A stretch of DNA of 64,000 bases, taken from contig JADJVE010000019.1 of NCBI GenBank assembly GCA_016716715.1, forward strand, positions 27,083-91,082. The letters are read 5' to 3'. This document shows positions 1,638-60,340 of this stretch, in pieces. The stretch is from Acidobacteriota bacterium (GTDB taxonomy: Bacteria > Acidobacteriota > Thermoanaerobaculia > UBA5066). The notes beneath the pieces were generated by a model. That model worked only from the letters and a program-made list of their open reading frames with translations. It searched no databases and was not told the origin of the DNA. The number at the start of each line of letters is the position of its first letter. Within the stretch, counting starts at the first letter, position 1. The position numbers and the translations under genes are program-made.

Positions 1638-2733
1638 GCGGGAACTCCGAGGCCGATGCGCGCCCGCGCGTCCTGGCCGGTCTGAACCGCGGCGCACCAT
1701 TCCGGGTTGTCCACGTACCACCGCACCGTCCGAAGAAGACCTTCTTCGAATGAGTAAGAGGGCTCCACCCGAGGTCCGTGCGTATCTTGCTGGCGTCGAT
1801 CGCGTAGCGGCGGTCGTGCCCCGGCCGATCCTTGACGAACGTCTTCAAATCCCCGTATCCCCTCTTACCCTTCAAAGAACTCTTCTCCGAAATCTTCCGG
1901 TTCTCTACGAACGGAACGGTCTGCTCGAGCGCCGCACAGAGAGCGTCGACGATCTGCAGGTTCGTCCGCTCGTTGCCGCCGCCGATGTTGTACTTGCTCC
2001 CCGGCGCCGCCTTCTGGAGCACGAGCAGGATGCCGCGGCAGTGGTCCTCGACGTGCAGCCAGTCGCGGACGTTGCCGCCGTCGCCGTAGATCGGGAGCGG
2101 CTTGCCCTCGAGCGCGTTCAGGATCATGAGAGGGATGAGCTTCTCGGGGAACTGATTCGGCCCGTAGTTGTTCGAGCAGTTCGTGAGGAGCGTCGGGAGG
2201 CGGTACGTCTCGTGCCACGCACGGACGAGGTGGTCCGCGGCCGCCTTGGACGCGGCGTACGGCGAGTTCGGGGCGTACGGCGTCTCTTCCGAGAAGAGGC
2301 CCGTCGGCCCGAGCGTTCCGTAGACCTCGTCCGTCGAGACGTGAAGGAAACGGAAGGCCTCGCGCGCGGCCGGCGGGAGCGCCGCCGTGTGCGCCCGCGA
2401 CGCCTCGAGGAGGACGTACGTCCCCGTGACGTTCGTGTGGATGAAGGCGCCCGGGCCGTCGATCGAGCGGTCGACGTGCGTCTCGGCCGCGAAGTTCAGG
2501 ACGGCGCGGGGGCGGTGCTTTTCGAAGACGGCCTTCATGGCCGCGGCGTCCGCGATGTCGGCCTCGACGAAGGCGAAGCGGGGGTCTCTCTCGCAGTCGG
2601 CGAGGCTGGCCCGGTGCCCGGAGTACGTCAGCTTGTCGACGACGACCACGGGGCCGGAGGTTTCCTTCAGGGCGAGGCGGACGAAGTTCGAGCCGATGAA
2701 ACCGGCTCCGCCGGTGACGAGTATCGAGTCCAT
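1634..2733 (-). CDS. rfbB: dTDP-glucose 4,6-dehydratase carrying a single-base frameshift near 1750-1762 (sequencing error or pseudogene)
   Basis: N-terminus [19 protein letters not shown], a [15 protein letters not shown] active-site region and [16 protein letters not shown]. After ...DLGWSP the frame is lost and resumes one base over as [21 protein letters not shown], ending at TGA 1636..1634. One G/C of a homopolymer appears to be missing. Carries an approximately 39-nt in-frame AT-rich repeat copy (1861..1900, [16 protein letters not shown]). This frame is absent from the supplied ORF track. Confidence 0.8.
1861..1900 (+). repeat. AT-rich mini-repeat copy (in-frame insertion in rfbB)
   Basis: CCTCTTACCCTTCAAAGAACTCTTCTCCGAAATCTTCCGG. 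About 13 extra residues relative to typical RfbB. Confidence 0.5.
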
Positions 2734-2836
2734 ACGGCCCGGAGGATATCGGACTCGGCCCGCGCCCGCGAAGAGCCTCGGCGCTGAGCTAGACTTCGGG
2801 CGCCCGGGGTGTGGTCCCGACACGGAAGGAGAACGC

Positions 2837-3646
2837 ATGAAGAAGTCCGTGCTTGCGATTCTGGCCGGCGCCGTCCTTGCGGCCGCGCCCGCTTTCGCCC
2901 AGTTCGAGGGCGAGCTGTCGATGAAGATGACGATGCGGGAAGGCAGCGGGACGGGGCGGGCCTACGTCTCGGCCGCCGGGACCCGCTCGGAGCTGGACAT
3001 CCAGACGGCCCAGGCGCCGTTCAGGATGACGACGCTCATGAAGGCGTCGAATCCCGACGTCATGTACATGATCAACGACGAGCAGAAGGCCTACGCCGAG
3101 GTCGACCTCAAGAAGATCAAGGAACAGGCCGCGAAGTACCGCGACAAGTCGAAGGAAACCTGGTCCGTCAAGAAGCTCGGGAAAGAGACGATCAACGGGT
3201 ACTCCTGCGACCACGCCTTCGTCACGAAGGCCGAGGACGCGAAGACCGAGCAGGAGCTCTGGACCTCGAAGGACGTCTCGGGTCTGAGCTACGAGTCCAT
3301 GCGCGGCCTCATGCGCCGCGGCAACGAGAGCGACGACGGGATGATGAAGGCCCTGCGCGACGCGGGCATCGACGGGTTCGTCGTGAAGAGGATCATGCGC
3401 GAGAAGGGCAACCCGGCGCCGGTCGCCACGATGGAGCTCACGAAAGTCGAGAGGAAGTCGCTCAAGAGCGCGCTGTTCGAGATCCCGTCCGGCTACACGA
3501 AGAAGGAAGGGATGATGGGCGCCGCGAGCGTCATGGCGCCCCCCGGCGCCGGCGGCGACGAGATGCGCAAGGCGATGGAGGGCCTCTCGCCCGAGCAGCA
3601 GAAGCAGATCCAGGAGATGATGAAGAGGCAGCAGCCGGCCAAGTAG
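2837..3646 (+). CDS. secreted hypothetical protein, DUF4412-like
   Basis: ATG preceded by GGAAGGAG. Signal peptide [21 protein letters not shown]. Lys/Glu-rich mature region with a [12 protein letters not shown] motif. Confidence 0.6.
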
Positions 3647-4219
3647 CTACTTCTTCTTCTGAACGGCCGGGAGAAGCGCGCTGAAGCCCGCGGCGCTCTT
3701 CGCGGAGTCGAAGGAGAGCTTCACGCGGTCGCCGGTGGGCGCGGCGCGGCCTGCCATCCCCGGGTTGAACCCGTGCGCGCCCCACGAGAAGCTCTGCGGG
3801 GCGCTCGCGATCTCGCCCTTGTGGTCCTTGTGGGTGCTCTCGCCCTCGACCCTCTTGATGTGTGTGTCGATGGCTTGCGCGGTGTCGAGCTTGACGGCTG
3901 CCTGGTCGATCTTGACGAAGTCCTTCTGGCCCTCGCCCGCTTTCCGCGCCGTGGAGACGGGCGGCGCCTGCGACGGGAAGCCGCGCGCCTCGGCGGGCGT
4001 CTTGCCCTTGAGGACGCCGCCCTGGAGGAACAGGAACTCGGCGGCGTTGCCGAATCCCTTGTAGTCGATCTTGACGTCGTACTTGCCCGCCGGCAGGACC
4101 GAGCCGTCGCCGAGCTTGACGGCCTGCGGCAGCGTGACGAACGTCATGTACGCGTCGACGGCCGCGGGCGCCGAGGCGGCCGCGGCGAGAAGGACGGCGG
4201 CAGCGAGAGTCGCCTTCAT
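3647..4219 (-). CDS. secreted hypothetical protein
   Basis: C-terminal part of track ORF 3647..6385. The real start is MKATLAAAVLLAAAASAPAAVDA (signal peptide) at 4219. Converges on the previous gene. Confidence 0.5.
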   Translation of the reverse strand: MKATLAAAVLLAAAASAPAAVDAYMTFVTLPQAVKLGDGSVLPAGKYDVKIDYKGFGNAAEFLFLQGGVLKGKTPAEARGFPSQAPPVSTARKAGEGQKDFVKIDQAAVKLDTAQAIDTHIKRVEGESTHKDHKGEIASAPQSFSWGAHGFNPGMAGRAAPTGDRVKLSFDSAKSAAGFSALLPAVQKKK

Positions 4220-4246
4220 AATGAGTTTCCTCTTGAGACTGATTCT

Positions 4247-11009: not shown

Positions 11010-11285
11010 ATGGAGCACGTCGATCCCGTCTGCGGCATGAAGGTCGATCCCGCCCGCGCCGCGGCGACGGTGCACTGGGGCGACAGGGACTGGTACTTCT
11101 GCGCGAAGAGCTGCGCGGAGAAATTCAGAAGAGACCCGGAAAGATTTTCTTTGAAAGTGAAGAGTGAAGAGTCGTTTGAGCCCATGACGTTTCCAGCAGG
11201 CATGGGCCTGCCGAGCCTGACGTTGCCCGCCGCGTCACCCGCGCCGATGGCCTCGCCGGCGCCTGCTGCCCTCTTCACCTTCTAA
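11010..11285 (+). CDS. copA: YHS/TRASH-type metal-binding domain, the N-terminal fragment of the copper ATPase, terminated by a TAA inside a repeat copy
   Basis: [46 protein letters not shown] is a YHS-domain signature. The frame ends at a TAA within CCTTCTAAGAAATC (11283..11285). Confidence 0.6.
11137..11172 (-). repeat. AT-rich mini-repeat copy (reverse orientation, inside the copA YHS fragment)
   Basis: CCGGAAAGATTTTCTTTGAAAGTGAAGAGTGAAGAG. Confidence 0.4.
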
Positions 11286-11316
11286 GAAATCTTCTCTTTC
11301 TTCTTCTTCCTCGAAG
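11271..11316 (+). repeat. AT-rich mini-repeat copy carrying an in-frame TAA that splits copA
   Basis: CTCTTCACCTTCTAAGAAATCTTCTCTTTCTTCTTCTTCCTCGAAG. Its length is 3n+1, consistent with the +1 frame change between the two copA parts. Confidence 0.55.
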
Positions 11317-11328
11317 TGGATCTGCCCG

Positions 11329-13431
11329 ATGGACCCCGAGGTGGTGTCGGACGTGCCGGCCGCGTGTCCGATCTGCGGGATGGCGCTGGAGCCGGCCGTC
11401 GCGACGGGAAATGAGGGAAATCCCGAGCTGGACGACATGGCGAAGCGTTTTCGCGTCGCGCTGGGGCTGACACTTCCGCTGTTTTTCTTCGAAATGAGCG
11501 CGATGGCCGGGCTGCGGCTCTTCGAAGGCGTCCCGCCGCGCCTCAACCTGCTCGTCCAGCTGGCCCTCGCAACCCCGGTCGTCCTCTGGTGCGGGAAGCC
11601 GTTCTTCGAGCGCGCCTGGCTTTCTCTGAAGACGCGGAACTTCAACATGTTCACGCTCATTGGCCTCGGGACCGGCGCGGCATACCTGTACAGCCTGGTC
11701 CGGACGGCGCAGGCCTTCTTACCCATTCAAAGAAATTCTTCTCTTCCTCTTCATTCCCCGGTTCATGACGTCTACTTCGAGGCCGCGGCCGGCATCGTCA
11801 CGCTCGTCCTCCTCGGGCAGGTCCTCGAGCTCCGCGCCCGCGCGAAAACCTCCGGGGCGATCCGCGAGCTGCTCGGCCTCGCGCCGGACACGGCGCGCGT
11901 CGTGCGGAAGGGCGCCGAGGTCGACGTCCCGCTCGACGAGGTCATGAAGGGCGACGTCCTGCGCGTGCGTCCCGGCGAGCGCGTGCCCGTGGACGGCGCC
12001 GTGACCGAGGGCGCGAGCGCCGTCGACGAGTCGATGCTCTCGGGCGAGCCGATGCCCGTCGAAGTGGGGCCCGGCGCGAAGGTGACGGGAGGGACGCTCA
12101 ACGGCACGGGCAGTTTCCTCATGCGCGCCGAGCGCGTGGGGGCCGACACCGTACTCGCGCGAATCGTCGCGCTCGTGGGCGAGGCGCAGCGCAGCCGCGC
12201 CCCCGTTCAGCGCCTCGCGGACCGCGTCGCGGGGATCTTCGTGCCCGCGGTCGTGGCGGCCGCGGCGGTCACGGCGCTCGCCTGGGGTATCTTCGGCCCC
12301 GAGCCGCGCCTTCCGCACGCGCTCGTGAACGCCGTCGCGGTCCTCATCATCGCGTGTCCGTGCGCCCTCGGTCTCGCGACGCCGATGTCCGTCATGGTCG
12401 GCATCGGCCGCGGCGCGAAGACGGGCGTCCTCTTCCGCGACGCGGCGGCGCTCGAGACGCTCGGGCAGTGCGACACGATGGTCCTCGACAAGACGGGGAC
12501 GCTCACGGAGGGGAAGCCGAAGATCGTGGAGACCCGCGCCTTCGGCGCATTCGATGAAAGTGAATTGCTGCGGCTGGCCGCTTCGCTGGAGCGCGCGAGC
12601 GAGCACCCCCTCGCGGCGGCCGTCACCGGGGCAGCCGAGGCCGCGGGCCTGACTCTTTCACCTTCAAAGGAATTCTCTTCTCTCCCAGGCAAGGGCATCC
12701 AGGGCAAGGTGGACGAACGCCACGTCCAGCTCGGTTCCCTTTCACTATTCGAAGAAGATCTTCAGCGGCGTTTCCCTCGCGAGATGCTGGAGGCAGCAGA
12801 CGAATGGAGGCGAAAGGCGGCCACGGTCCTCTTCGTCGCAGTCGACGGCCAGCCCGCGGGCTTCCTCGCCGCGGCCGACCCGCTCAAGGTTTCTGCGAAA
12901 GCCGCGATTACCGACCTGAAGGCGCTGGGTCTCCGCGTCGTCATGCTCACCGGCGACGCCGAGGCGACGGCTCGCGCCGTCGCTGCCGAGGCGGGAATCG
13001 AGGAGGTCGTGGCGGGCGTCCTGCCGGCCGGCAAGGCCGACGCCGTCGCGCGCCTGAAGGCGTCCGGCGCGCGCGTGGCGATGGCGGGAGACGGCGTGAA
13101 CGACGCGCCCGCGCTCGCGGGCGCGGACGTCGGGATCGCCATGGGGACCGGGTCGGACGTGGCAATCGAGAGCTCGTCGGCGACCCTCGTGGGCGGCGAC
13201 GTCGCCGCGCTCCCGAGGGCCGTGCGGCTCTCTCGCGCGACGCTCCGCAACATCCGGCAGAACCTGTTCTTCGCGTTCGTCTACAACGTCGTCGGCGTCC
13301 CCGTGGCCGCGGGCGTTCTCTACCCGGCCTTCGGCCTCCTCCTGTCGCCCGTACTCGCGAGCGCCGCGATGACGTTCAGCTCGCTCTCGGTCGTGGGAAA
13401 CGCGCTGCGCCTGCGGAGCGTCCGCCTCTAG
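11329..13431 (+). CDS. copA: copper-translocating P-type ATPase (core, 700 aa)
   Basis: [10 protein letters not shown] metal-binding motif. TM CPC motif [20 protein letters not shown] phosphorylation site, MLTGD, and a [11 protein letters not shown] hinge. The frame continues upstream of the ATG as KWICPM, so the gene was once fused to the YHS fragment. Confidence 0.85.
11714..11758 (+). repeat. AT-rich mini-repeat copy inside copA (in frame)
   Basis: CCTTCTTACCCATTCAAAGAAATTCTTCTCTTCCTCTTCATTCCCC. Confidence 0.45.
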
Positions 13432-13499
13432 ACGCCTGATTCCGGCGCATCATGGCCGCCGGCCCCCGGCCGAGCCGAAGCTGAACCCGGGGGTGTCCC

Positions 13500-14054: not shown

Positions 14055-14117
14055 CCGGCCGGAAATTCCCTGCGAAATCCCGAGGACTTCCGCGTCCCCG
14101 GGCCCCACGTTTCGGTC

Positions 14118-14921
14118 ATGGGAGCCGTCCGCAAGCCGAACTTCGAGCTCTCGAAGTGGTACTTCGACGCGGTGGGGGATGACGGCGAGGTCTTCATCGG
14201 CTATCGCGCGAACCTGCGCTGGAGGCGGCTCGCGGTCTCGTACGCCGCGGCCCTGACCGGCGGGGCTCACGAGACGCGGACTGCGTCGATCATGAGGTCC
14301 GAACAGGAGCCGGTCCTGCGAACGGGCTCCCTCGCGTGGGCGGCGCCGGCGCTCGACATCGAGGGGACGTGGACTGCGGACGCGCCTGCGCTCCTTCGGA
14401 CGCTCTACGACTGCCCCGACGGGTCGGTCGTCTGGGCCTGCCTCTTCCCGCGCGCGCGGGCCGGCGTACGGATCGGTTCGCGCGAGATCCGCGGTTTCGG
14501 CTACGCCGAGCGCCTCGAGATGACGCTGCCGCCCTGGAGGCTGCCGCTCGAGACGCTGCGATGGGGGCGGTTCCTGTCTCCGGACCGGTTCGTCGTCTGG
14601 ATCGACTGGCAGGCGCCGGAACGCTCGCGCACGTGGGTGTTCGTGGACGGGATCGAAGCGCGGGAAGCGGGGGTTTCGGACGAAGAGATTTCTTTTGAAG
14701 GGGGAAGAATTCGGCTCCCTTCGGCGAGCCGGTTGTCGCTGCGCGCCGGCCGCGTCTCCGACCTTCTAAGAGATCTTCCTCTTTCTCTCCTTCTTCGTCT
14801 CTTTCGTCGCGCGCGCGCCGTCCACGAGACCAAGTGGCGGACGCGGGGCGTTCTCGAATGCTTCGGCGCGCCGGCCGTCGAGGGCTGGGCGATTCACGAA
14901 GTCGTGAGGTTCAGGACATGA
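14118..14921 (+). CDS. CrtC-like (hydroxyneurosporene synthase / carotenoid hydratase family) protein
   Basis: N-terminal SKWYFDAVGDDGEVFIGY resembles the CrtC family motif. Carries two AT-rich repeat copies near the C-terminus. Confidence 0.45.
   Translation: MGAVRKPNFELSKWYFDAVGDDGEVFIGYRANLRWRRLAVSYAAALTGGAHETRTASIMRSEQEPVLRTGSLAWAAPALDIEGTWTADAPALLRTLYDCPDGSVVWACLFPRARAGVRIGSREIRGFGYAERLEMTLPPWRLPLETLRWGRFLSPDRFVVWIDWQAPERSRTWVFVDGIEAREAGVSDEEISFEGGRIRLPSASRLSLRAGRVSDLLRDLPLSLLLRLFRRARAVHETKWRTRGVLECFGAPAVEGWAIHEVVRFRT
14761..14806 (+). repeat. AT-rich mini-repeat copy inside the CrtC-like gene
   Basis: ACCTTCTAAGAGATCTTCCTCTTTCTCTCCTTCTTCGTCTCTTTCG. Confidence 0.45.
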
Positions 14922-22892: not shown

Positions 22893-23557
22893 CGGGTTTC
22901 GCTGCTTTCGGAGGAAGATTTCTTTGAAGGTGAATGGGGCGAAGGGGCCGTCGGAGCTTCGCCTGCCGCCTGATGCGCGGCCGCCTCCCCGCTCTTACCT
23001 TCTAAGAAATCTCCATCTTCTTTCGTCAGGAATTCCTTCGGCATGTTCTGTGAAGCCTGCAGTGTTTTCACCCAGGCCACCACCGCCCAGCGGTCTTCCG
23101 GCGTGATCTGGGACGCGTAGCTCGACATCTGGCCGAAGCCGTTCGTCATGACGTCGTAGAAGTAGCCCGCGCGCTCGTTGCGGAGGCGGTCGACGTGGAA
23201 CGTGCTCGGGTTCTTGAAGCCGCGCGCGACGATCATGCCCTGCCCGTCGCCCGTCCGGCCGTGGCACGGCGAGCAGAAGATGTTGAAGCGCTCCTGCCCG
23301 CGGAGGAGGAGCGTCTTCGTGACGGGGACGGGGAGGTCGAGGACGAACTTGCCGTCCTCGCCGACGCCGCGGTAGAGCGCCGCGTCGGCGCGCAAGAACC
23401 CGCGTGCGACGACGCCTTCCGGGAGCGGCCGGGCCGAGCTGTGGTCCGCGAAGAACGGAGACTCGCGCAGCGGCTTCGTCTTTGCCTGGTTGTGCATGTC
23501 GTCGCGGCAGCCGCCGAGCGCGAGAGCGAGAAGAGGGAGAAGGAGCGCGCGGCGCAT
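22889..23557 (-). CDS. actE: alternative complex III subunit ActE (monoheme cytochrome c lipoprotein)
   Basis: Start MRRALLLPLLALALGGC (lipobox) and a single CSPCHG heme motif. The C-terminal tail carries two in-frame AT-rich repeat copies (FLTKEDGDFLEGKSGE...SPSKKSSSESSETR). Confidence 0.75.
   Translation of the reverse strand: MRRALLLPLLALALGGCRDDMHNQAKTKPLRESPFFADHSSARPLPEGVVARGFLRADAALYRGVGEDGKFVLDLPVPVTKTLLLRGQERFNIFCSPCHGRTGDGQGMIVARGFKNPSTFHVDRLRNERAGYFYDVMTNGFGQMSSYASQITPEDRWAVVAWVKTLQASQNMPKEFLTKEDGDFLEGKSGEAAAHQAAGEAPTAPSPHSPSKKSSSESSETR
22983..23030 (+). repeat. AT-rich mini-repeat copy in the actE tail
   Basis: CTCTTACCTTCTAAGAAATCTCCATCTTCTTTCGTCAGGAATTCCTTC. A second copy in reverse orientation lies at 22906-22938. 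Confidence 0.5.
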
Positions 23558-35263: not shown

Positions 35264-35287
35264 CGGGCCCACGCGTAAATGGCTCAT

Positions 35288-35316: not shown

Positions 35317-35394
35317 CAATACGCGTCAATCTCTCTTCATGATTTGGTGTCCGAGCGCGCCTTGGTATTTCTTCTCGACGCACGGAGGCTCGTG

Positions 35395-37081: not shown

Positions 37082-37108
37082 GAACTTCTTCCTGGAAGGT
37101 AAGAGAAC
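37081..37108 (-). repeat. AT-rich mini-repeat copy (intergenic, reverse orientation)
   Basis: AGAACTTCTTCCTGGAAGGTAAGAGAACGG. Its reverse complement is CCGTTCTCTTACCTTCCAGGAAGAAGTTCT. Confidence 0.45.
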
Positions 37109-37110
37109 GG

Positions 37111-37140
37111 GGGCCCGGCGGTTGCCGGGCCTCTTCGTTT
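37111..37140 (+). terminator. rho-independent terminator-like hairpin after the Ig-like gene
   Basis: GGGCCCGGC-GGTT-GCCGGGCCT stem-loop followed by CTTCGTTT. Confidence 0.45.
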
Positions 37141-37156
37141 ATCCTCGCCGCTCGCC

Positions 37157-38713: not shown

Positions 38714-38724
38714 GGCCGAAGGTT

Positions 38725-38756
38725 AACGCTAAAACGTCATGACGTCAAAACGCTCA
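38725..38756. promoter_or_regulatory. palindromic operator-like element ACGTCATGACGT flanked by AAAACG repeats, just upstream of the toxin-antitoxin (TA) operon
   Basis: A perfect 12-nt palindrome at 38734..38745, 21 nt upstream of the antitoxin start. A likely RHH autoregulation site. Confidence 0.35.
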
Positions 38757-44715: not shown

Positions 44716-45251
44716 ATCGGAGGGAGCTCCGCGAACATCGCCGCCAGTGCGTCCTGAACGCGGCGCGGCGCCCCGGCGGCGCGCTCGCGCGCGTCGCGCC
44801 TGAGCCGGGAGCCGTCCGGGCCAAGGAGCAGAAGCCGGGCGTCGATGAGGTCGATCGGGCCTCCCGCGTCGACCTTCAGGAGCACCAGGTCCGGCGCATC
44901 CACGACCGGAATCGACTCGCCTCCGAGTGAGAGCGTCAAGCGCCTGGAGAGCACGTCGTCGAGCCAGCGTTCGCGCCCGACGACGAGGTCGACGTCCGGC
45001 TCGGGTTCGCGGCGCAGCCGAACGACTCCGAGAAGGGGGTCGTCCGGATCACCGCGATGGATCGTCACGCCGATTCCCTTGACGGCGAACCCGTCCCACG
45101 ACTCCTTTCGAAGAAATCCCGGATCCGTTCCGAGAAGGTCGGCGTCGCGCGTGGCGCGCAGGACACCATGCGCCGCGAGCGCAAGGCCCCCTATCAGCGC
45201 GACCGGCGCACGCGCGGCGGCCGCGTCCACGACTTCCTTGAGGAGGGTCAT
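44700..45251 (-). CDS. nucleotidyltransferase-fold protein (AbiEii/MNT-like)
   Basis: VALIGGLALAAHGVLRATRDADLLG fits the GG(S/T)AL...R.T.D.D minimal NTase motif. Its start overlaps the stop of the upstream small ORF (ATGA). Confidence 0.45.
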   Translation of the reverse strand: MTLLKEVVDAAAARAPVALIGGLALAAHGVLRATRDADLLGTDPGFLRKESWDGFAVKGIGVTIHRGDPDDPLLGVVRLRREPEPDVDLVVGRERWLDDVLSRRLTLSLGGESIPVVDAPDLVLLKVDAGGPIDLIDARLLLLGPDGSRLRRDARERAAGAPRRVQDALAAMFAELPPIQPSA

Positions 45252-48008: not shown

Positions 48009-51000
48009 ATGAAAAACGCCCGACGAATCGCCCTCTTCGCCGCCGCCGCGCTCTTCGCCGCCGGGTCCGCCCGGATGGCGCTCACCTTCGCCGGGGCCCG
48101 CGTCACGGGCCCGGCCACGTGGAAGGACGTGGACCGGCTCGTCTCCGAGCAGAAATTCGAGGAGGCGGCCGCCGCGGCCGGGAAGATTCGCGAGGCGGCG
48201 CGCGCCGCGGGCGACGAGACGGACGAGGCGAAGGCCCTCGTCCGCGAGGTCCAGCTCCGGACCGCGCTTCACGGCTACGAGACTTCGGTCCGGTTCCTGA
48301 AGGACCAGCCGTGGCCGAAGGGCCTCCTGCAGAGGACGACGCTGCGCCTCTTCTACGCGCAGTCCCTCGTGACGTACGCCCAGGCCTACGGGTGGGAGAT
48401 CGGCAAGCGCGAGAAGGTTTCCTCGACTGGCGCCGTCGACCTCAAGGCGTGGACGCGGGACGAGATCCAGGCCGAGGCCGTGCGGGCGTACGTCGAGGTC
48501 TGGAAGGACCGCGAGGCGCTCGGGCGCGTGCCGGTGAACGCCGTCGCCGACTTCGTCGAGCCGAACAACTACCCGAAGGAGATCCGCGGCACGCTGCGCG
48601 ACGCCGCGTCGTACCTCTTCGCGGCCCTCCTCGCCGACACGTCCGGCTGGCGGCCCGAGCAGTCGAACGGCGTCTTCTCGCTCGACGCGAGGCTCCTGAT
48701 CGCCGGTGACGCCGGGGTGTCGAGGCTCGTGAAGCTCGACGACCCTGCCGTCCACCCGCTCCTGAAGCTCGGCGCCGTCCTCGACGACCTCGAGGCCTGG
48801 CACGCGCGCGCGGGCGAGAAGGAGGCCGCGCTCGAGGCGCGCCTCGAGCGCCTGCGCCAGCTGGACGCGGCGCTGACGGACGCGGGAGATCGCGCCGCCA
48901 TCCGGAAGGACCTCGCCTCGAAGCTCCCGGCGTACGCGGCCGTCCCCTGGTTCTCGATGGGAAAGGCCCAGCTCGCCGACTTCACGCGCGCCGAGGAAAA
49001 GCCCGGCAACCTCGTCAGGGCGCGGGCGCTCGCGCTCGAGGCGATCGCCGCCTGGCCGAAGTCGCTCGGGGCCGACCGCGCCCGCTCGATCGTCGGGCAG
49101 ATCGAGGCGCCCGACTGGTCGATGGCCGCGATGGCGGCGGACGGTCCGGGGAGGCGCTCGATCGAAGTCACGCACCGGAACCTCCCGGTCCTCTTCTTCC
49201 GCGCCTACGCGGTCGACCTCGAGGCCCGGATCGGCCGGGCGAAGGACTACAACCTCATGCCGCAGGGTCCGGAGGTCGACGCGCTCGTCGCGAGGGAAAA
49301 GCCGGTCGCGTCCTTCGAGTCGGCGCTTCCCGCCACGACCGACTTCAAATCGCATCGCACGTTCGTGACGCCGCCGGCCCTCGGGCGCGGCCTGCACGTC
49401 GTCGTCGCATCGGCCGATCCCGGGTTCGCGCCCGACAAGGGTCCGCTCCGCGCGGTCGGGATGATCGAGACGGACCTCGTCCTCACGGTTCGCCAGACGG
49501 ACACGAACGCCGTCGAGGCGCGGGTGTTGACGGGAACGACCGGCCGCCCCGCGGCCGGGGCGACGGTGTCGCTGTACCTCTACGACTGGCAGAAGGGGCA
49601 TCGCCGCATCGCCGAGGCCACGGCCGGGAGGGAGGGGCTCGCCGTCTTCGAGCCGACTCCCGAGCGCAGCGGCAAGCCGCTCTTCCTCTTCGCGAGGCGC
49701 GGCGAGGACGTCGCGCTGGATGCCGCGTCCTTCTCGATGTGGGCGCGCGGGCAGTCCGGCGAGACGTCCTCCGCGCTCGTTTACACCGACCGGAGCATCT
49801 ACCGGCCGCTCCAGAAAGTGCTCTGGAAGGCGATCCTCTACCGCGGCCGTCCCGACCAGGCGCGTTTCCAGGTGGCGCCGGCGTCGACCGTCTCGATCAC
49901 TCTCGTCGACGCGAACGGGCAGGCCGTCGAGTCGAAGGCCGTCACGACGAACGCCTACGGCTCCGCGGCCGGGGAGTTCGCGCTCCCGGCCGGGCGCGCG
50001 CTCGGCGCGTGGAGCGTGCGCTGCGACTGGGGCGGCGCCGCTTCGATCCGCGTCGAGGAGTACAAGCGGCCGACGTTCGAGGCGACGCTCGAGGAAGCGA
50101 AGGACGCTCTGCGCCTGAACAGGCCCGCGACGTTCCGGGGGGAGGCGCGCTACTACTTCGGCCTTCCCGTCGCGAGCGGAAACGTCGCCTGGCGCGTCAC
50201 GCGCGAGACAGAGTACCCGTGGTGGTGGTGGTGGGGATGGATGGGGCGCGGGCGCTCCGCCGGCGCGGAGACCGTCGCGACGGGCAACGCCGCGCTTGGC
50301 GCGGACGGAAGGTTCGCGGTCACGTTCACCCCGAAGGCGGACGAACGGCAGTCGAAGGAAATCACGTACCGCTACCGCGTCTCGGCGGACGTCACGGACG
50401 AGGGCGGCGAAACGCGCTCGGCCGACCGCTCCTTCCGCCTCGGGTTCGTGAGCGTGAAAGCGAGAGTGGAGAGAGAGAAGAATTTCTTCTTAGAAAGTAA
50501 GAAGGGAGAAGGCGCAGCGAAGATCGTCAGGACCGATCTCGATGGAGCGCCGCGTCCGGGCAAGGGGACCTGGCGGCTGCTGCGGCTCGTGTCGCCCGAG
50601 AAGCCGGTCCTCCCGGCCGAATTACCTTCAAAGAAATCCGAAAACGCCGTTGCACTTGGCGAGAAGGCCGCAGCAGGCGGCGTGTCGACCCCCGGCGACC
50701 TGCTTCGCCCCCGCTGGGCGACGTCGTACTCCGTCGACGAATGGCTGCACTCCTGGAAGGACGGGGCCGAACAGTCCTCCGGCGACCTGACGCACGACGC
50801 GAAGGGCGAGGCGAAGGTCGACCTGCCCGCCTTGTCCGAAGGCGCCTACCGCCTGCGCTACTCGACCGTCGACGACTTCGGTGCGAAGTACGAGACGGCG
50901 CAGGACTTCCTCGTCGCCGGCGGAAAGTCCGCCCCGGCGCTGCCCGTCGTCCTCCTCGCCGAGTCGTCCTCGGTGAGGGTCGGCGGCGTCGCTCGCTTCC

Positions 51001-54000
51001 TCGTTGCATCCGGCCTTCGCGATCAGACGCTCTTCCTCGATGTCGCGCGCGCTGGAAGGCTGATCGAGCGCCGCATCCTCAAGGCCGGGAGCGACGCCGT
51101 GCTCATCGAAAGGGCGATCACGGAGGAGGACCGCGGCGGGCTCGGTGTGACGCTGACCGCCGTGCGCGATCACCAGTTTCTCCAGCAGACGCAGAGCGTT
51201 TTCGTGCCGTGGGAAGACCGGGAGCTGAAGGTCTCCTTCGCCACCTTCCGCGACCGCCTGCGCCCCGGCCAGACCGAGACGTGGCGCGTAACGGTGAAGG
51301 GCGCGACGCCCGCGCACCCGCTCAAGGAGACGGCCGAGCTCCTCGCCTACATGTACGACCGGAGCCTCGACTCCTTCGTCCCGCACCGGCCCGTGAGCCC
51401 GCTCGCGCTCCTGCCGAATCGCGCGACGCCGCTCGTGGTCCGCGCGACGCTCGGTCCGGCGCCCCAGCTCTGGCTCACGAGCAGCGGCTTCCCGTCGCCT
51501 CCGTCCGGCCCGTACCTCGTCGGAGACCGGCTCAAGTTCGAGAGCGGCTACGGAATCGGCGGCCCTGGCGTGAGGAGCCGCGGGATGGGCGGCGCCTACA
51601 ACCAGGTGAGACCCGCCTCGGCGCCGATGGCGATGAAGTCGGCCATGGCGAGGGAGGAGGGGGCGGCCAACGCGGTCGCCGAAGGCAAGCTCGCCGATTC
51701 GAAGAACGGGCGAGACGAGGAGGTCGATTCACTTTCGAAGAAGAAGGACGGCGATAAGGCGCGCGCGGACGCTGCAGGCGAAGGCACGGGTCTTCGCAGC
51801 AACTTCTCCGAAACCGCTTTCTGGCAGCCGCAGCTCCTGACGGGGCCGGACGGCTCGGCGTCCATCGAATTCACCGTGCCGGACTCCGTCACGTCGTGGA
51901 AGGTCTTCGTCCACGCGGTCACGAAGGACCTGCGCGGCGGGTCCGTGGACGCCGAGACGAAGACCGTCAAGGACCTCATGGTCCGGCCGTACGTCCCGCG
52001 CTTCCTGCGCGAAGGCGACAAGGCGGAGATCAAGGTCGTCGTGAACAACGCGTCGGGGAAACCGCTGAGCGGCACGCTGGCGTTCGAGATCACGGATCCG
52101 GCGACGGGGAAGAGCCTCCTCGCGGCATTCGGGCTCGAAGGTGGCGCGTCGAAGGCATTCACGGCGCCCGCGGGCGGCGGGACGAACCTGACGTTCCCCG
52201 TGACGGCGCCGAAGGGACTGACGACCGTCGCCTTCAAGGCGGTCGCGACGGCGGGCGACCTGTCGGACGGCGAGGTCCGCCCGGTGCCGGTGCTGCCCGG
52301 CCGGATGCACCTCGTCCAGTCGCGCTTCGTCACGCTCAAGAACAAGGACAAGAAGACGCTGCGCTTCGACGACCTCGCGAAAAACGACGATCCGAGCCTC
52401 GTCAACGAGCAGATGGTCGTCACCGTGGACGCGCAGCTCTTCTACACGGTCCTCCAGGCGCTGCCGTACCTCGTGAACTACCCGTACGAGTGCACGGAGC
52501 AGACGCTGAACCGCTTCCTCTCGACGGGCATCGTCTCGAGCGTTTACAAGGACTACCCGGCCGTCGCGAAGATGGCCGCGGAGATGTCGAAGCGGACGAC
52601 GCCTCTCGAGTCCTGGGACGCGGCCGATCCAAATCGAAAAATGGCTCTTGAAGAGACGCCGTGGCTCGTGACGGCAAAGGGCGGCCGCACCGACCTCGAC
52701 ACGATCAACGTCCTCGACCCGCGCGTCGCGCAGGCGAACCGGGAGTCGTCACTCGCGCGGCTGAGGAAGGCGCAGACCTCGATCGGAGCGTTCCCGTGGT
52801 TCCCGGGCGGCCCGCCGTCGCCTTACATGACCCTCTACATCCTCCACGGCTTCGCGAAGGCGCTCGAGTTCGGGGTGGACGTTCCGAAGGACGTGACACA
52901 GCGCGCGTGGGGCTACGTCGCGCAGCACTACCGGAGCGAATGGCGTGCCTGCATGGCGGACAACCGCTGCTGGGAGTACATCACTCTCCTGAACTACGTC
53001 CTGTCGACGTACCCGGACGTCTCGTGGAGCGGCGGCGCCTTCACGGACGCCGAGCGCAAGGAGATGCTCGACTTCTCGTTCAAGCACTGGAGGCACCACG
53101 CCCCGTACCTCAAGGGCTATCTCTCGCTGACGCTCAAGCGCATGGGCCGACCGGCGGATGCGAAGCTCGTGTGGGACTCGGTCATGGACTCGGCGAAGTC
53201 GAACGAGGAGCAGGGGACGTTCTGGGCGCCCGAGGACCGGTCGTGGCTCTGGTACAACGACACGATCGAGACCCACGCGTTTGCACTGCGGACGGTCCTC
53301 GAGCTGGACCCTACGAGCGCGAAGAAGGACGGCCTCGTCCAGTGGCTGCTCATCAACAAGAAGCTCAACCAGTGGAAGTCCACGCGCGCGACGGCCGAGG
53401 TCATCTACTCGCTCGTCCACTACCTGAAGAAGGAAGGCGCGCTCGGCGTCCCCGAGGACGCGACCGTGACCGTCGGCGTCCAGAAGGTGACGTTCGCGTT
53501 CGACCCCGAGAAGTACACGGGGAAAAACAATCGGATCGTGATCCCCGGCGAGAAGGTCGACCCCAAGACCACGTCCACCGTCGTCGTCGAGAAGGAAGGC
53601 AAGGGCTTCGTCTTCGCCTCGGCCGCCTGGCACTTCTCGACGGAGAAGCTTCCCGCCGAGGACCGCGGAGACTTTTTTCAGGTCTCGCGGAAGTTCTTCC
53701 GGCGGGAGAACACGGGGAAGGAGTTCACGCTGACTCCGCTCGCCGAGGGCGCCGTCATCCGGCCCGGCGACCAGATCGAGGTGCAGATCTCGCTGCGGAC
53801 GAAGCACGACGCCGAGTACGTTCACCTGCGCGACCCGCGGGCGGCCGGCCTCGAGCCCGAGAACGTCCTTTCGAAGTGGAAGTGGGACCTCGGGATCGCG
53901 TGGTACGAGGAGACTCGCGACTCGGCGACGAACTTCTTCTTCGAGCGCCTGCCCGTCGGCGAGTACACGTTCAAGTACCGCCTGCGCGCGAACATGGCCG

Positions 54001-54751: not shown

Positions 54752-55617
54752 GCGGCGGCCTCCGCTCGGCGAGCCCGGCCCTTTGCGAGTGAGGTTCTCG
54801 CTCGGGCGAGCTCGTCGAGGATTTCTTTGAAAGGGGGAAAGGCTCCGTCGCGCTCGAGGATCACCGTGAGTGGCTGCGGCGCCAGCTCGCCGACCCTCTC
54901 GAGGAGATCGAAGACCGCGTCGGGGGTCGCGTGGAGGTGATCGTCGAGGATCCTGCTCACACCCGCCCTGCCCGGCACCCCGATGCGCCGCCCGCCAGCG
55001 AGATGAACGGCCCTCACCCGGTTGCTCGGGACCACTCGAAGAAATCTCTCTTCCTCTTCCTCTCCTCCGAACCCAAAGTTCTTCGCGTTCGCGTGGAGGT
55101 TGTGCAGGTCGAGGAGGAGATCCGTGTCGCAGGCCTCGAGGACCTCCGCGACGAACGTTGCTTCGTCGCGGTCGCTGCCGGGCGGGTCGATCAGCGTCGC
55201 GACGTTCTCGAGGAGCGGCGCGCTGCCGACGACGGCGCGGGCGCGCGCGACGTTGCGCCCCGTCCCCTCGATCGTGGCCGCGCAGCGCGGCGGGGCCGCG
55301 AGGTGGCCGATCTCGATTCCGCCGCCGCGCACGAACGCGAGGTGCTCCGACCAGAACACGGGCTGTGCGAGGTCGAAAACGCGCGCGAACGCGTCGAGGC
55401 GCCTCGGGTCGACGGGCGCCGAGGAGGCGAGGCCGAGCGACACGCCGTGAAGGACGACCGGCACGTACGCGCCGAGCGTCCGGAGGGCGCGGACCTCGCG
55501 CGCCGGGCTCTTCATCCAGTCTTCGGCGATCACCTCGACGACGTCCAGCCGGTCCGCCGCCGCGAGGATGCGGTCGGCGATCGCGGGCCGCCAGCCGAGC
55601 CCGACGCGGTCCTTCAC
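54748..55617 (-). CDS. DUF692 family multinuclear non-heme iron oxidase (MNIO, MbnB/TglH-like)
   Basis: TIM-barrel xylose-isomerase-like motifs: GLGWRPAI, WSEHLAF, LLENVATL, LLLDLHNLHANAKNFGF, and VHLAGG. Confidence 0.8.
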   Translation of the reverse strand: MKDRVGLGWRPAIADRILAAADRLDVVEVIAEDWMKSPAREVRALRTLGAYVPVVLHGVSLGLASSAPVDPRRLDAFARVFDLAQPVFWSEHLAFVRGGGIEIGHLAAPPRCAATIEGTGRNVARARAVVGSAPLLENVATLIDPPGSDRDEATFVAEVLEACDTDLLLDLHNLHANAKNFGFGGEEEEERFLRVVPSNRVRAVHLAGGRRIGVPGRAGVSRILDDHLHATPDAVFDLLERVGELAPQPLTVILERDGAFPPFKEILDELARARTSLAKGRARRAEAAA

Positions 55618-57227: not shown

Positions 57228-59240
57228 TTAAGACGATGTGGAGGTGCGCGAGCGCGCCTTGGCGAGCAGCCGCTCCCGGAAGAGGCCCGGCGGGATCTGG
57301 CCCTCGGACAGGAACTCCTCGTGGAAGCGCTTCTCCGAGAAGCCCGGTCCCTCGATCCGGCGGCACTCCTCGCGCAGCGCGAGGATTTCGGCTTTCCCGA
57401 GGTAGTACGTGATGGCCTGCGTCGGCCACTTGGAGTACCGGAAGGCGGCCTTCTTCATCCCGTCCACGGCGGCGCGCTCGGAGGCGCTCGGGTTCGCCTT
57501 CGGGTCGGTCGAGACGGGGCCCTGCACGAAGCGCACGTTTCGCGCGAGGTACGTCACGGCTTCGTCGAACGTCATGAAGCCGCAGTGAAGACCCGTGTCC
57601 ACCACGACGCGCGCGTCGCGCAGGAGCTGGTTCTGGAGCTGGATGAGGCGCTCCTCGGGCGTGTAGAAGCCTTCCGGGAAGCCGTCGCGCGGCTCGCCGA
57701 TCAGCTGCTCGGTGTAGAGGGCCCAGCCCTCGGAGGACAGCGCGTCCTCCCACATCGACGCGGAATCCTCGACACCGCCGGGCAGCAGCCAGCGGATCAC
57801 GGGAATCGACGCCGAGCGCGCGCGCGTGAACTGGTAGTACCAGTCGTGGCCGGGGAAACCCTCGTGGGCGGCCGTGGACGCGATCGCGGGCCGGTTGTGG
57901 TCGCGCAGCGCGGCGAGGTCGTTCCCCGTCGGCGTGACGTAGAACTGCCCGACGCCGCCCTTCTTGAACTGGGGCGCCGGGTAGTACGCGGCGTCGATCG
58001 AGTCGCGCAGGGGCGGCGGCGTGAAGAGGACGTCCAGCCGGTAGTCGGCCGGCAGGTCGAACATGCCCGTCTTCCGCCCGTACGCCACGAGGCGCTGGCA
58101 CGTGTCCCGGTAGGACGCGAGCATCTCCGCGTCGGTCTTCGGGATCTCGTCCTCCAGCTTCGAAACGACGGCGGGCAGGGACGGGTCGGACCAGCCGCGC
58201 GAGATCGCGATGCGGCGCGCGAGAGCCGTCATCTCGGCGAGGGTCGCGGCGACGGCGGTCTTGCCGCGCGCGTGCAGCTCGCGCGGCGTCGCGGAGATTC
58301 CCAGGTTGTTCTTCAGCGCCCAGGTGTATTCGATCTCGCCGGCCGCGTAGCGATCGCGGTCGAAGGCGGGCTTCAGCGTCTTGCCGTCGGGCTGGATGTA
58401 GAGGTCGACGAGGCCCTTTCGGAAGTCGCGAAAGGCGGCGCCGGCGGCTGCGGACGCCGAGAGGAGAGCCGCGCGGCCCGCGTCGTCGAGGGCGGAGCCG
58501 GCTTCTTTCGCGCGCTCCGGGAGCGTCTTCTCGAAGTAGGCAGCCGTCGACGCGGCCGCCTCGACCGACACGGCGATGAGGCGCCGGTCGGGGATCGCGT
58601 CGCCGGAGGCGCCGCGCCGGACGTTCGCGAGAGCCACTTTCAGGTACGCGGGCACGGCGGCGGTGCGAGAGGCGATCGCGGCCCACTCCGCTTTCGTTCC
58701 GCGCGCGGAGCCCGCGCCCGGCTCCATTCCCTGGAGCGTCCACTCGATCCCGCGCAGCGGCTCCTCGAGGAAGACGTCGAGCGCCTTCTCGTGGATCCGG
58801 CGTTCGAGGTTGTGGATCAGGAAGGCGAGCTGGGACTTCATCACGGCCGCGTCGATGCGGTCGGATTCCGGGAGCTTCTTCCGGTCGATCTTCGCGAGGC
58901 GCGCTTCGAAACCGCGAAACTCGTCGCGCTCGGCGAGGAGCGCGGCGGGGGAGTAGTCGCGCAGCTTTCCGTCCAGCGCGGCGTAGGCCGGGTCGAGTCC
59001 GGAGGCGCCGAGGTACGTCGCGACGACGGGAAAGCGGCTCAGGAATGCACGGACGTAATCCTCTTCGAGCGCCGCGAAGACCGAGGCTTTTTGCTTCGGA
59101 GATTTCGGAGAAGAAGAGGAGGGGGATTTCTGCGAATGCGCGGGCAGGGCCAGCGCGGCGAGTAACGCCAGGGCCGCGACGGTTGCCGGGTGCGCGACGC
59201 GGGTGAATGCGGGGATCCGCCCTCTTACCCTTCTAAGCAA
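57228..59240 (-). CDS. DUF885 family protein (secreted, peptidase-like)
   Basis: TTG start supplied by a repeat copy (MLRRVRGRIPAFTRVAHPATVAALALLAALALPAHS signal peptide), with GGGAGG upstream. HEGFPGHDWYYQ and other DUF885 motifs. Confidence 0.65.
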   Translation of the reverse strand: MLRRVRGRIPAFTRVAHPATVAALALLAALALPAHSQKSPSSSSPKSPKQKASVFAALEEDYVRAFLSRFPVVATYLGASGLDPAYAALDGKLRDYSPAALLAERDEFRGFEARLAKIDRKKLPESDRIDAAVMKSQLAFLIHNLERRIHEKALDVFLEEPLRGIEWTLQGMEPGAGSARGTKAEWAAIASRTAAVPAYLKVALANVRRGASGDAIPDRRLIAVSVEAAASTAAYFEKTLPERAKEAGSALDDAGRAALLSASAAAGAAFRDFRKGLVDLYIQPDGKTLKPAFDRDRYAAGEIEYTWALKNNLGISATPRELHARGKTAVAATLAEMTALARRIAISRGWSDPSLPAVVSKLEDEIPKTDAEMLASYRDTCQRLVAYGRKTGMFDLPADYRLDVLFTPPPLRDSIDAAYYPAPQFKKGGVGQFYVTPTGNDLAALRDHNRPAIASTAAHEGFPGHDWYYQFTRARSASIPVIRWLLPGGVEDSASMWEDALSSEGWALYTEQLIGEPRDGFPEGFYTPEERLIQLQNQLLRDARVVVDTGLHCGFMTFDEAVTYLARNVRFVQGPVSTDPKANPSASERAAVDGMKKAAFRYSKWPTQAITYYLGKAEILALREECRRIEGPGFSEKRFHEEFLSEGQIPPGLFRERLLAKARSRTSTSS

Positions 59241-59250
59241 TTTCCAGAAC
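59219..59250 (+). repeat. AT-rich mini-repeat copy forming the 5' end (TTG start) of the DUF885 gene
   Basis: GCCCTCTTACCCTTCTAAGCAATTTCCAGAAC. Confidence 0.45.
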
Positions 59251-59269
59251 CTCCCGTCCTGTCTCTGCG

Positions 59270-60307
59270 CTAGTTGGAACGGGGATTCTCTCTCAACCGC
59301 CCGAGGAAGAATGCCAGCCCAACGGCCCCCGCCGCGAGCGTCGTGAGCAGGTGCAGGAGGCCGCCGAGGACGGCGCCTGTCGCGAGCGGCAGCCCGTCCA
59401 GCGCCGCGGCCGCCGCGAAGCCGGATTCGTACGGGCCGAACGTGCCCGCGGGCGACGGGATCACCGCGGCCGTCGTGATGGACGCGAGGAGCGCGACGGC
59501 AAGCGTCGCGGGGTGGAGGGGCAGGCCGAGGCCCTTCGCGGTCACGAAGAGCGCGGCGAGATGGAGCGCGAGGAATGCGATCGCGGCGAGCGCCGCCCCG
59601 AGGTAACGGTTGGGGGCGCGCCGCGCCACGGCGAGGCCCTCGAGGATCTCCTCGGCGATCGCGCGCCGCTTTCCGCCCTCCGGCAGGCGCGGGGCGAGCC
59701 ACGCGACGAGGCGGCCGGAGACGGCGGGCAGAACGAGAAGAAGTCCGGCCCCGCCGACACACACCGCAGCGGCCGCGGCGCCGAGGACGGGCGTGCCACG
59801 CGCGACGAGCAGCCACGCCGCGCCCGCGACACCCGTGAGGAGGAGCGTCGCCGTGTCGAGGAGCTTCACGAGGGCGAAGACCGCCGCCGATCGCGCCCAC
59901 GTGGTCCCGAGGACGGAGCGCAGCGCGGCCCATGTCCCGACCTCGCCGGTCCGGAAGGGCATCACCTGCAGGAGAAAAGTCGTCGCCCCCGACACGGACC
60001 ACGCGCGGCCGAACGGCACCTCAGCGCCGCGCGGCAGCAGCAGGTTCAGCCGCAGCGCGCGGGGGGCGAAGGCGAGGACGTTGAGCAGGAACCCGAGCGC
60101 GACGAGCCACGGGTTCGCGGAAGAGAGTCGGGAGAAAAGGTCTGCTGAAGAGCGCGTGAACGCCACGGCGGCCAGCACGAGCAGCGCCGTCAAGAGAAGG
60201 AGAGAAAAGAGTTTCTTAGAAAGGGTAAGAGGGGCGGAGCCGGGGCGCGGCCCCTCCGCGCCCGGTTGCGGCGGCGCGTGTCCCGCGGCGGGCATCCGTA
60301 CATTCAC
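59270..60307 (-). CDS. flippase-like (UPF0104 / lysyl-PG-synthase TM region) membrane protein
   Basis: 345 aa, about 8 TM segments. Alternative start at ATG 60295 (MPAAG...), 9 nt downstream of an AAGGTG contributed by a repeat copy. Confidence 0.6.
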   Translation of the reverse strand: MNVRMPAAGHAPPQPGAEGPRPGSAPLTLSKKLFSLLLLTALLVLAAVAFTRSSADLFSRLSSANPWLVALGFLLNVLAFAPRALRLNLLLPRGAEVPFGRAWSVSGATTFLLQVMPFRTGEVGTWAALRSVLGTTWARSAAVFALVKLLDTATLLLTGVAGAAWLLVARGTPVLGAAAAAVCVGGAGLLLVLPAVSGRLVAWLAPRLPEGGKRRAIAEEILEGLAVARRAPNRYLGAALAAIAFLALHLAALFVTAKGLGLPLHPATLAVALLASITTAAVIPSPAGTFGPYESGFAAAAALDGLPLATGAVLGGLLHLLTTLAAGAVGLAFFLGRLRENPRSN

Positions 60308-60340
60308 CTTCTAAGAAATCCGAATCCGAAATCCGAAATA
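60298..60340 (+). repeat. AT-rich mini-repeat copy followed by a 3x tandem heptamer (CCGAAAT / GGATTTC), in the 5' leader of the flippase-like gene
   Basis: CGTACATTCACCTTCTAAGAAATCCGAATCCGAAATCCGAAATA. A further reverse-orientation copy lies at 60183-60228. Confidence 0.5.

Follow-up and report, generated by a model that had tools for sequence, protein, structure and literature searches.

A hyper-iterated AT-rich motif arranged in head-to-head inverted pairs in the GC-rich genomes of Thermoanaerobaculia (Acidobacteriota)

A 64,000-nucleotide stretch of an Acidobacteriota bacterium of the class Thermoanaerobaculia (assembly GCA_016716715.1, contig JADJVE010000019.1, positions 27,083 to 91,082; hereafter the window) contains many copies of a short AT-rich motif in DNA of about 70% GC. 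A first-pass annotation, made from the sequence alone, had described these copies as mini-repeats embedded mostly inside coding sequences. Our analysis very probably describes them correctly as a clade-specific, hyper-iterated motif of ~26 to 30 bp that forms head-to-head inverted pairs, is held at the nucleotide level, and is built in place. The best explanation that we can offer for the whole, to which we give a probability of roughly 0.45 as a figure blended over its descriptive and functional parts, is that each pair provides polar sites at which a conserved factor binds duplex DNA.

The consensus, taken from information content, is cTCTTcA-CCTTCnAAGAAATC-t followed by a variable CT-rich tail; CCTTCnAAGAAATC is the core, CCCTCTTCA the head, and the CT-rich stretch the tail. 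The only symmetry within the unit is a TTCTnAGAA mini-palindrome (4+1+4), the remainder being asymmetric, i.e., polar, and neither a GTAG/CGTC tag nor a stem-loop inside the unit is present in the consensus or the information profile. In the window, CCTTCTAAGAAATC with two or fewer mismatches occurs 11 times (0.10 expected; none of 100 shuffles reached 11) and TTCTWAGAA occurs six times (0.01 expected), in agreement with the over-represented AT-rich family first proposed. The 20 to 25 copies claimed for it are matched by an nhmmer profile, which finds ~26 copies, and by an ungapped position weight matrix, which finds 17 to 18 clear ones; ~8 further copies are degenerate. An exact 14-mer lies at 11278, 22998, and 60307; the last of these positions stands as originally given, and the other two had been placed at 11279 and 22988. 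The background GC content of the window is 0.65 to 0.75 and that of the motif islands 0.38 to 0.50, and about half of the 53 short islands with 42% GC or less belong to the family. An independent assembly (Logan SRR11674022, contig L001) is 100% identical to the window across the 14.7-kb pair, and the same arms, as we call the individual copies, are found in JGI, ENA, and NCBI assemblies of relatives, which include independent Illumina and long-read assemblies from many projects. The family is therefore not an assembly artifact, a possibility that the first-pass annotation had asked to be checked.

To follow the motif through the clade, we used an 18-mer scan with one genome per species, which returned at least 120 loci; the set used for pair statistics was drawn from the matches listed. 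Among these matches, 107 of 120 lie in high-GC Thermoanaerobaculia/Acidobacteriota metagenome-assembled genomes (MAGs), representing at least 23 species-level genomes, and the remaining 13 are low-GC strays, about the number estimated to occur by chance. The window belongs to Thermoanaerobaculia, judging from its CopA homologs. Syntenic loci of relatives (L007 to L010) carry the core at orthologous positions, and it recurs in nonsyntenic loci of more distant genomes (L011 and L012). Loci chosen without regard to the motif contain ~0.24 arms/kb, compared with 0.05 in a reversed-sequence control; extrapolated from this density, the count would be of the order of a thousand arms per genome. Searches of the literature turned up no account of the motif, which is real, clade-wide, previously undescribed, and paired.

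The pairing was measured over the loci of the 18-mer scan plus the window (854 kb, 270 arms), with neighbors counted within 600 nt. Along the window, reverse and forward copies alternate, and across the 854 kb neighboring arms are oriented (-,+) in 68 cases, versus 8 for (+,-), 9 for (-,-), and 9 for (+,+). A head-side inverted partner accompanies 64 to 71% of 179 strong arms, versus 4 to 6% in two control configurations, and the excess of inverted pairs is limited to distances below 400 nt. Each pair reads as a GA-rich tail, GAAGATTTCTTAGAAGGTGAAGAGGG, an interior, CCCTCTTCACCTTCTAAGAAATCTTC, and a CT-rich tail, so that the heads face each other and the tails point outward. Center-to-center spacing has a mode at 65 to 95 nt and a second group at 123 to 147 nt; most values fall between 65 and 190 nt, within a full range of ~35 to 350 nt. 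The interiors of 44 pairs resemble each other only between orthologs or paralogs and have no common sequence or structure; they average 75% GC and show no intrinsic structure (mean z of about -0.25). Nor do partner arms share variants (within-pair co-variation of 12.25 versus 12.86 ± 0.36 when permuted). The real unit is a head-to-head inverted pair flanking arbitrary, often native, sequence; the earlier description of a single 25- to 50-nt element captured the family and missed this arrangement.

To ask at which level the arms are conserved, we compared third codon positions at codons with identical amino acids in seven kinase copies from five MAGs. Third-position identity is 0.93 in the left arm (EDFLEGEE; GC content at third positions [GC3], 0.32) and 0.88 in the right arm (YSFEEI; GC3, 0.40), versus 0.56 in the native interior (GC3, 0.81). 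The arms are thus held at the nucleotide level, by selection or drive, against the strong GC3 bias of the genome. Intragenic arms never place a stop codon in the host frame, and they use preferred frames. Left arms are read as EDFLEGEE in 35 of 49 cases, as KISSKGEE or KISLKVK in 12 (with TAG changed to TCG or TTG), and in the third frame in 2; right arms are read as PSSPSKKSS in 52 of 65 cases, as LHLLRNL in 9, and as SFEEI in 4 (TAA becoming GAA or AAA). Stop avoidance mostly accounts for the core variants TTCAAAGAA and TTCGAAGAA, which are used in the frame in which TAA or TAG would terminate translation. The consensus has one open frame in its purine-rich orientation and two in its pyrimidine-rich orientation, as the first count of three open frames in six implied, and in-frame runs such as PSKKSS and DFLEGE do lie inside genes, mainly in loops, linkers, and tails.

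Comparison with homologs shows that arms arise and decay in place, through point substitution or recoding in conserved segments and through small indels in loops and linkers. Once its frame is corrected, RfbB can be aligned over its full length to RmlB structures in the Protein Data Bank (PDB; E = 2.7e-130); in this alignment, the arm at 1732-1760 is a gap-free recoding of the native P..tFEeGl segment, and the arm at 1856-1898 coincides with a loop insertion of 10 to 14 amino acids. In a recurrent unit of Ser/Thr kinases, each of the two arm cores falls on PknB residues with no gap (the left onto RADLARDPSF and YSFEEI onto YDTGEA), and the sole insertion is an 8-amino-acid poly-Ser tail. In a three-way DNA alignment, the copA right arm at 12651-12687 is strong in the window, only partial in L009, and missing from L007, all at equal length; the left arm at 12546-12572 is found in the window and L007 and not in L009, a pattern that differs from that of its partner. 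At the protein level, aligned CopA segments that carry the motif are likewise equal in length to those that lack it, and the two arms of a pair are gained separately. A linker segment of copA (11138-11321) is missing entirely from CopA homologs at ~63 to 69% identity, and the core of its right arm (11268-11297) is kept in L007, L009, L135, and L137. Insertions relative to homologs are small and restricted to tails and some loop arms. No transposase family recurs within 8 kb of the arms, although whole genomes were not searched, and IS (insertion sequence)-sized tail-out pairs show no excess at 0.7 to 4 kb.

Membrane Ser/Thr kinases carry the pair at a spacing of exactly 95 nt around helix aC and strand b4, with several paralogs per genome (L049 at 2041 and 5174, L131 at 2687 and 5346, L027, L045, and L079); the pair has therefore persisted through gene duplication.

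The arms of the window are as follows.

1732..1898: pair 1; arms 1732-1760 and 1856-1898, inside rfbB (gene on the - strand); the interior is native coding sequence.
11138..11321: pair 2; left arm 11138-11167, right arm 11268-11297 with its CT tail to 11321; YHS-HMBD linker of copA.
11714..11758, +: single right-type arm in a membrane loop of copA; orthologous position kept in L007 and L009 and, at the protein level, in many homologs.
12546..12687: pair; degenerate left arm 12546-12572 (AFDESELL), right arm 12651-12687 (SPSKEFSS); nucleotide-binding domain of copA.
12733..12767, +: single right-type arm in copA (SLFEEDLQ, TAA changed to GAA); arm-like counterpart in L007 and, in another register, in L009.
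14672..14805: pair; arms 14672-14713 (also kept in L007 and L008) and 14752-14805; 3' end of a 267-amino-acid gene (14118-14921), upstream of a PEMT/PAP2/LGT gene.
22911..23017: pair; arms 22911-22940 and 22988-23017; junction between the tail of a c-type cytochrome gene and the ATG of the next gene, both on the - strand; orthologous arm in L009, L010, and L112.
29671..30001: pair; arms 29671-29700 and 29972-30001; inside a 570-amino-acid membrane protein gene (29253-30965); the L025 ortholog has the same pair at a spacing of 134 versus 303 nt.
30451..30614: weaker pair, the second of this membrane protein gene; arms 30451-30462 and 30585-30614.
37078..37107, -: single left-type arm at a gene boundary, with a weak score.
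45099..45121, +: single degenerate right-type arm.
50478..50644: pair; arms 50478-50507 and 50615-50644; inside the alpha-2-macroglobulin (A2M) gene (48009-54107); the orthologous pairs in L114 and L078 are closer, 85 to 86 versus 139 nt.
51721..51750, +: single right-type arm in the A2M gene.
54814..55063: pair; arms 54814-54843 and 55034-55063; 3' part of a PF05114 (MbnB/TglH/ChrH, formerly DUF692) gene on the - strand.
59095..59248: pair; arms ~59095-59140 (HSQKSPSSSSP) and 59219-59248; 5' end of the DUF885 gene on the - strand.
60204..60353: pair; arms 60204-60233 and 60297-60326, tail to 60353; between the stop of a GT2 gene (60342) and the LPG-synthase-TM gene.

The host gene labels first assigned hold up: Pfam supports A2M, DUF885, PF05114, LPG-synthase TM, and cytochrome c, PDB supports RmlB, and homologs support CopA. 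The DUF885 pair brackets a signal peptide, with the arm at 59219-59248 supplying a TTG start and an Arg-rich n-region, the interior encoding the hydrophobic h-region, and the arm at ~59095-59140 forming a Ser/Pro/Lys linker after an AHS cleavage-like site. In the pair at 60204-60353, AAGGTGA within an arm stands 8 nt before the LPG-synthase ATG (60295). These two copies have plausibly been co-opted for gene starts, as the first-pass annotation had suggested when it described them as donors of a start codon and a Shine-Dalgarno sequence.

Several further features of the arms and of the window deserve mention. The length of the CT-rich tails varies among orthologs and paralogs (poly-Ser stretches from 5 up to more than 12 residues; window 11297-11321, L135 1440-1480, and the kinase genes of L049, L027, and L131), and these tails behave like coding microsatellites joined to the arms. 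Six Logan contigs from different runs (L001 to L006; window 13259-14912) share a start at 13259/13260 and have differing ends, one of them exactly at the right arm at 14762; here the arms act as k-mer repeats that break short-read assembly graphs. Two AT-rich islands outside the family, at 38717-38754 and 61328-61355, contain other palindromes (AAACGTCATGACGTCAAAAC and GTGATATGACATCAC) that resemble conventional operator sites. The AT-rich intergenic stretch at 35276-35352, also not a member of the family, has a TTGACA hexamer, lies upstream of a Big_7-domain gene (35344-37650), and may be an ordinary promoter region.

We related the pairs to genes by means of our own simple codon-model gene caller. 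Forty of 68 pairs (59%) lie within one predicted gene, versus 53 expected at random; 20 are intergenic, versus 5.8 expected (3.4-fold enriched), and 8 straddle a gene end. Most pairs are thus genic, although the original claim that almost all copies are inside open reading frames (ORFs) was overstated. The position of pairs inside genes is nearly flat, and the intergenic pairs (16 tandem, 4 convergent, and 4 divergent) are distributed roughly in proportion to the DNA available, often filling whole tandem spacers. Given the flat gene position and the proportional spacer types, the pairs sit where they are tolerated rather than at gene-specific places: they occupy spacers, loops, linkers, and stop-free frames and mark no particular gene landmark.

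The first-pass annotation had also concluded that a TAA in the motif splits copA. This split is an effect of a window-specific additional nucleotide at ~11265, which puts the TAA of the right arm in the copA frame; in the closest relatives, this arm is translated as PSKKS within a single unbroken YHS-HMBD-ATPase ORF. Three conserved genes, each intact in relatives or in solved homologs, are broken by lone 1-nt indels (rfbB at ~1757-1762, copA at 11265, and COX1 at 19034), and that in COX1 is away from any arm. The frame breaks are assembly noise or pseudogenes, unrelated to the motif. Such lone indels suggest a long-read-type assembly with residual errors or a strain with pseudogenes. The rfbB and copA breaks adjoin arms; a programmed frameshift at arms was rejected, given the intact relatives, the window-specific copA nucleotide, and the COX1 indel off any arm.

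Public copA calls in relatives (P0009, P0011 to P0013, P0017, P0023, P0025, and P0028) begin at the internal Met of CPMDPEV and are ~700 amino acids long. In the three relatives checked (P0009, P0011, and P0013; loci L133, L135, and L137), the DNA encodes an intact YHS-HMBD-ATPase of ~800 amino acids. A recurrent copA split was rejected on this basis, the ~700-amino-acid homologs starting at MDPEV being start errors of gene callers. An ABC-transporter ORF beside copA is over-extended on the other strand in the public calls of relatives. Gene callers appear to be led astray by the AT-rich arms.

Hyper-iterated words are uncommon in genomes, with Chi and KOPS among the examples. Repetitive extragenic palindromic (REP) units are GC-rich stem-loops (5- to 13-bp stem) with a terminal GTAG/CGTC tag, present genome-wide in hundreds of copies, mainly as inverted head-head or tail-tail dimers around 20- to 100-bp spacers that vary in sequence and length; they are mostly extragenic, with a minority that are intragenic and translated, are described as interrupting ORFs, and, in the GTAG families, associate with transposase genes (PMC3733652). 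The motif resembles REPs and REPINs in forming inverted dimers with short spacers (68 pairs versus 8 to 9, with the mode at 65 to 95 nt) and differs in being AT-rich and untagged, in lying within genes in 59% of pairs, in cores that recode native residues, and in having no family of transposases or REP-associated tyrosine transposases (RAYTs) found near its arms. Uptake signals are clade-specific, occur in hundreds to thousands of copies of an extended motif whose core is strong and whose flanks are weaker, and lie in ORFs in 34 to 65% of cases, where they show reading-frame bias, fall on poorly conserved residues, accumulate in place rather than by insertion, and enrich particular peptides in the proteome (PMC2817400). 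Like the uptake signal sequences (USS) of Pasteurellaceae and the DNA uptake sequences (DUS) of Neisseriaceae, the motif is clade-specific and over-represented and accumulates in place, also at weakly conserved positions of ORFs; those sequences act singly, whereas the motif is an obligatory head-to-head pair at 65 to 190 bp, is longer, has low-complexity tails, and is AT-rich against a genomic background of 70% GC.

The cyanobacterial highly iterated palindrome HIP1 is a perfect 8-bp GC-rich palindrome that is recognized by methyltransferases and used singly; it is kept by selection, no evidence points to a role as peptide, RNA, or gene regulator, and a function at the level of the chromosome or nucleoid has been suggested (PMC5861425, PMC4390886). 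The motif is likewise hyper-abundant, clade-wide, and conserved both inside ORFs and between them beyond neutral expectation (0.88 to 0.93 versus 0.56), but it is ~26 to 30 bp long, asymmetric, and paired. Rickettsia palindromic elements (RPEs) and prokaryotic MITEs (miniature transposable elements with inverted repeats) measure 100 to 150 bp. In these, the whole element, body included, is conserved and is an insertion (PMC10969869, PMC1779305). The motif shares with them in-frame reading within genes, the addition of surface or loop peptides, and copies common to related species; it is conserved in its two arms only, around an arbitrary or native interior, and its cores replace native codons with length unchanged.

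An unlikely alternative to binding sites on DNA is that the pairs work as RNA: transcripts in either direction carry a purine-rich 5' arm and a complementary pyrimidine-rich 3' arm that would close a long stem, serving as an RNase III or processing site, an mRNA stabilizer, a bidirectional terminator, or a Rho-entry signal for untranslated or antisense RNA. Minimum free energy folds of six pairs do close the arms into ~20-bp stems on both strands, the inverted geometry tolerates variable loop size and so fits the broad spacing, the tails are complementary in composition (GA versus CT), and REP dimers are thought to act in this way (PMC3733652). The fold z-scores, however, are only about -2; partner arms, inner flanks included, show no co-variation; G.U wobbles are not enriched over A.C mismatches on the mRNA strand (90 versus 121); partner tail compositions are uncorrelated (r = 0.17); and only ~59% of positions are Watson-Crick in a 32-nt register. 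Predicted terminators (50 to 64 kb of the window) never coincide with arms, the whole window has no Rfam match at gathering thresholds, and a stem alone leaves the heads-in-only arrangement unexplained. We consider it similarly improbable that the motif is a preferred substrate for uptake or recombination, accumulating like USS and DUS through biased uptake and homologous replacement. The 59% of pairs in genes, the frame bias, the recoding, and the turnover by substitution match the uptake-sequence pattern (PMC2817400), but a bias in uptake works site by site and gives no reason to expect obligatory head-to-head pairs at 65 to 190 bp, no dialect drift is seen across deep divergence, and AT-rich arms with low-complexity tails are unlike known uptake signals.

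That the copies are a selfish mobile repeat of the RPE, MITE, or REP/REPIN kind, inserting in frame as the first-pass annotation supposed, is quite improbable. Short inverted units in head-head dimers with 20- to 100-bp spacers, some intragenic, are known for REPs and RPEs (PMC3733652, PMC10969869), and certain arms are indeed loop insertions (10 to 14 amino acids in RmlB, 8 poly-Ser amino acids in the kinases), the whole CopA linker unit is missing from distant homologs, and pairs often fill entire tandem intergenic spacers. A mobile element would nevertheless be expected to share a body, whereas the interiors resemble one another in orthologs or paralogs only and in many cases consist of native coding sequence; alignment to homologs, a check of the kind that the annotation itself had proposed, finds the cores of RmlB, the kinases, and CopA to be gap-free recodings, with small insertions at some loop arms and tails only. 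One arm passes from absent through partial to strong at equal length, partner arms share no variants, and synonymous sites of old copies are still constrained. IS-sized tail-out pairs show no excess, no recurrent transposase family was found near the arms, the unit has no stem-loop and no GTAG/CGTC tag, and no copy was found on high-GC viral contigs. The mobile-element reading is largely refuted for the recoded arms. Very unlikely, too, is the view that the arms are sites at which a site-specific invertase flips the interiors to produce phase or protein variation. Its geometry fits, with ~26-bp inverted repeats around tens to hundreds of base pairs and a lower spacing limit of ~65 bp, yet hundreds of identical sites per genome would also recombine with nonpartners, each assembly examined has the interiors, essential segments of native coding sequence, in frame, orthologous interiors keep the same orientation relative to their flanks, with one orientation seen in all assemblies and orthologs, and no recombinase family recurs near the arms. 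Least credible of all is an absence of function, whether as a neutral by-product of biased repair or of a codon or compositional quirk or as a sequencing or assembly artifact. The window assembly does hold lone indels, and biased repair has come under discussion as one possible reason why HIP1 is so abundant (PMC4390886, PMC5861425); against this, identical arms occur across independent assemblies from many projects, and a 26-bp asymmetric consensus, strict pair orientation, and synonymous conservation against GC bias are not neutral expectations.

Other candidates were rejected outright. A GT...AG intron-like or bypassed intervening sequence (AAG/GTAAGAG ... CTTCTAAG/) does not fit interiors that encode indispensable native segments (RmlB, kinase aC-b4). 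A promoter or 5' untranslated region motif at gene starts is contradicted by the lack of sigma-70-like sites at arms, the flat gene position, and the lack of preference for divergent spacers. A short linear motif acting at the protein level does not account for synonymous sites fixed to rare codons or for the ~40% of arms that are intergenic. A phage-borne element was dismissed because all 34 matches in viral contigs are single copies in contigs of 31 to 46% GC (low-GC chance matches), with none on high-GC viral contigs. Likenesses of the motif to the 16S 3' end/anti-SD, boxA, IHF, IS5 ends, and phage RNAP promoters may be noted and play no part in the argument.

We favor paired binding sites on duplex DNA. 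Each arm would be an independent polar site for one conserved sequence-specific factor, most simply a protein, and the functional unit would be two such sites facing each other, giving a signal that reads alike from either direction. That the arms are read independently is indicated by the lack of within-pair co-variation and by the separate gain of the two arms. The role would be chromosomal, in nucleoid architecture, topology, or as a place where a machine that tracks along DNA is loaded or meets a polar barrier, and not in the control of particular genes; the translated peptides and the occasional start codons and Shine-Dalgarno sequences would be by-products. The part of this proposal that assigns the pairs to a protein on DNA with a chromosomal role is reached by exclusion and is put forward tentatively. 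Several points weigh against it. The analysis brought up no candidate for the reader, and the surroundings of the arms show no recurrent protein family. The spacing is broad, with no obvious helical phasing, which is unusual for two sites bridged by one rigid complex, and a model of protein sites does not account for the complementarity of the GA and CT tails. What favors DNA over RNA as the level of action is negative evidence on RNA pairing only. The location statistics carry the caveat of our own gene calls, and the data examined comprise the loci and the window, a scale below that of the chromosome.

Divergent CTCF pairs at domain borders and opposed Ter sites offer an analogy for a more far-reaching possibility, which we regard as doubtful: the pairs might constitute a selection-maintained, genome-wide "punctuation" code, in which hundreds of bidirectional polar pairs, recoded into genes, are read by a tracking or architectural machine. 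If true, bacterial chromosomes would have a signal of a new class, and an unusually clear case of a noncoding code laid over protein-coding sequence would be at hand.

Earlier hyper-iterated words (uptake sequences, Chi and KOPS, HIP1, and REPs) each opened a view on DNA uptake, repair, segregation, or selfish DNA. The motif described here is unusual in four ways: it is long and polar, paired head to head, AT-rich in a 70% GC genome, and recoded into conserved domains. Because it is written into such domains by synonymous or near-synonymous recoding, two codes overlap there. It serves as a simple sequence marker for Thermoanaerobaculia, and it has shaped the proteome of this widespread, uncultured class of Acidobacteriota, adding the peptides EDFLEGEE and PSSPSKKSS, tails of poly-Ser, and, occasionally, a start codon or ribosome-binding site.

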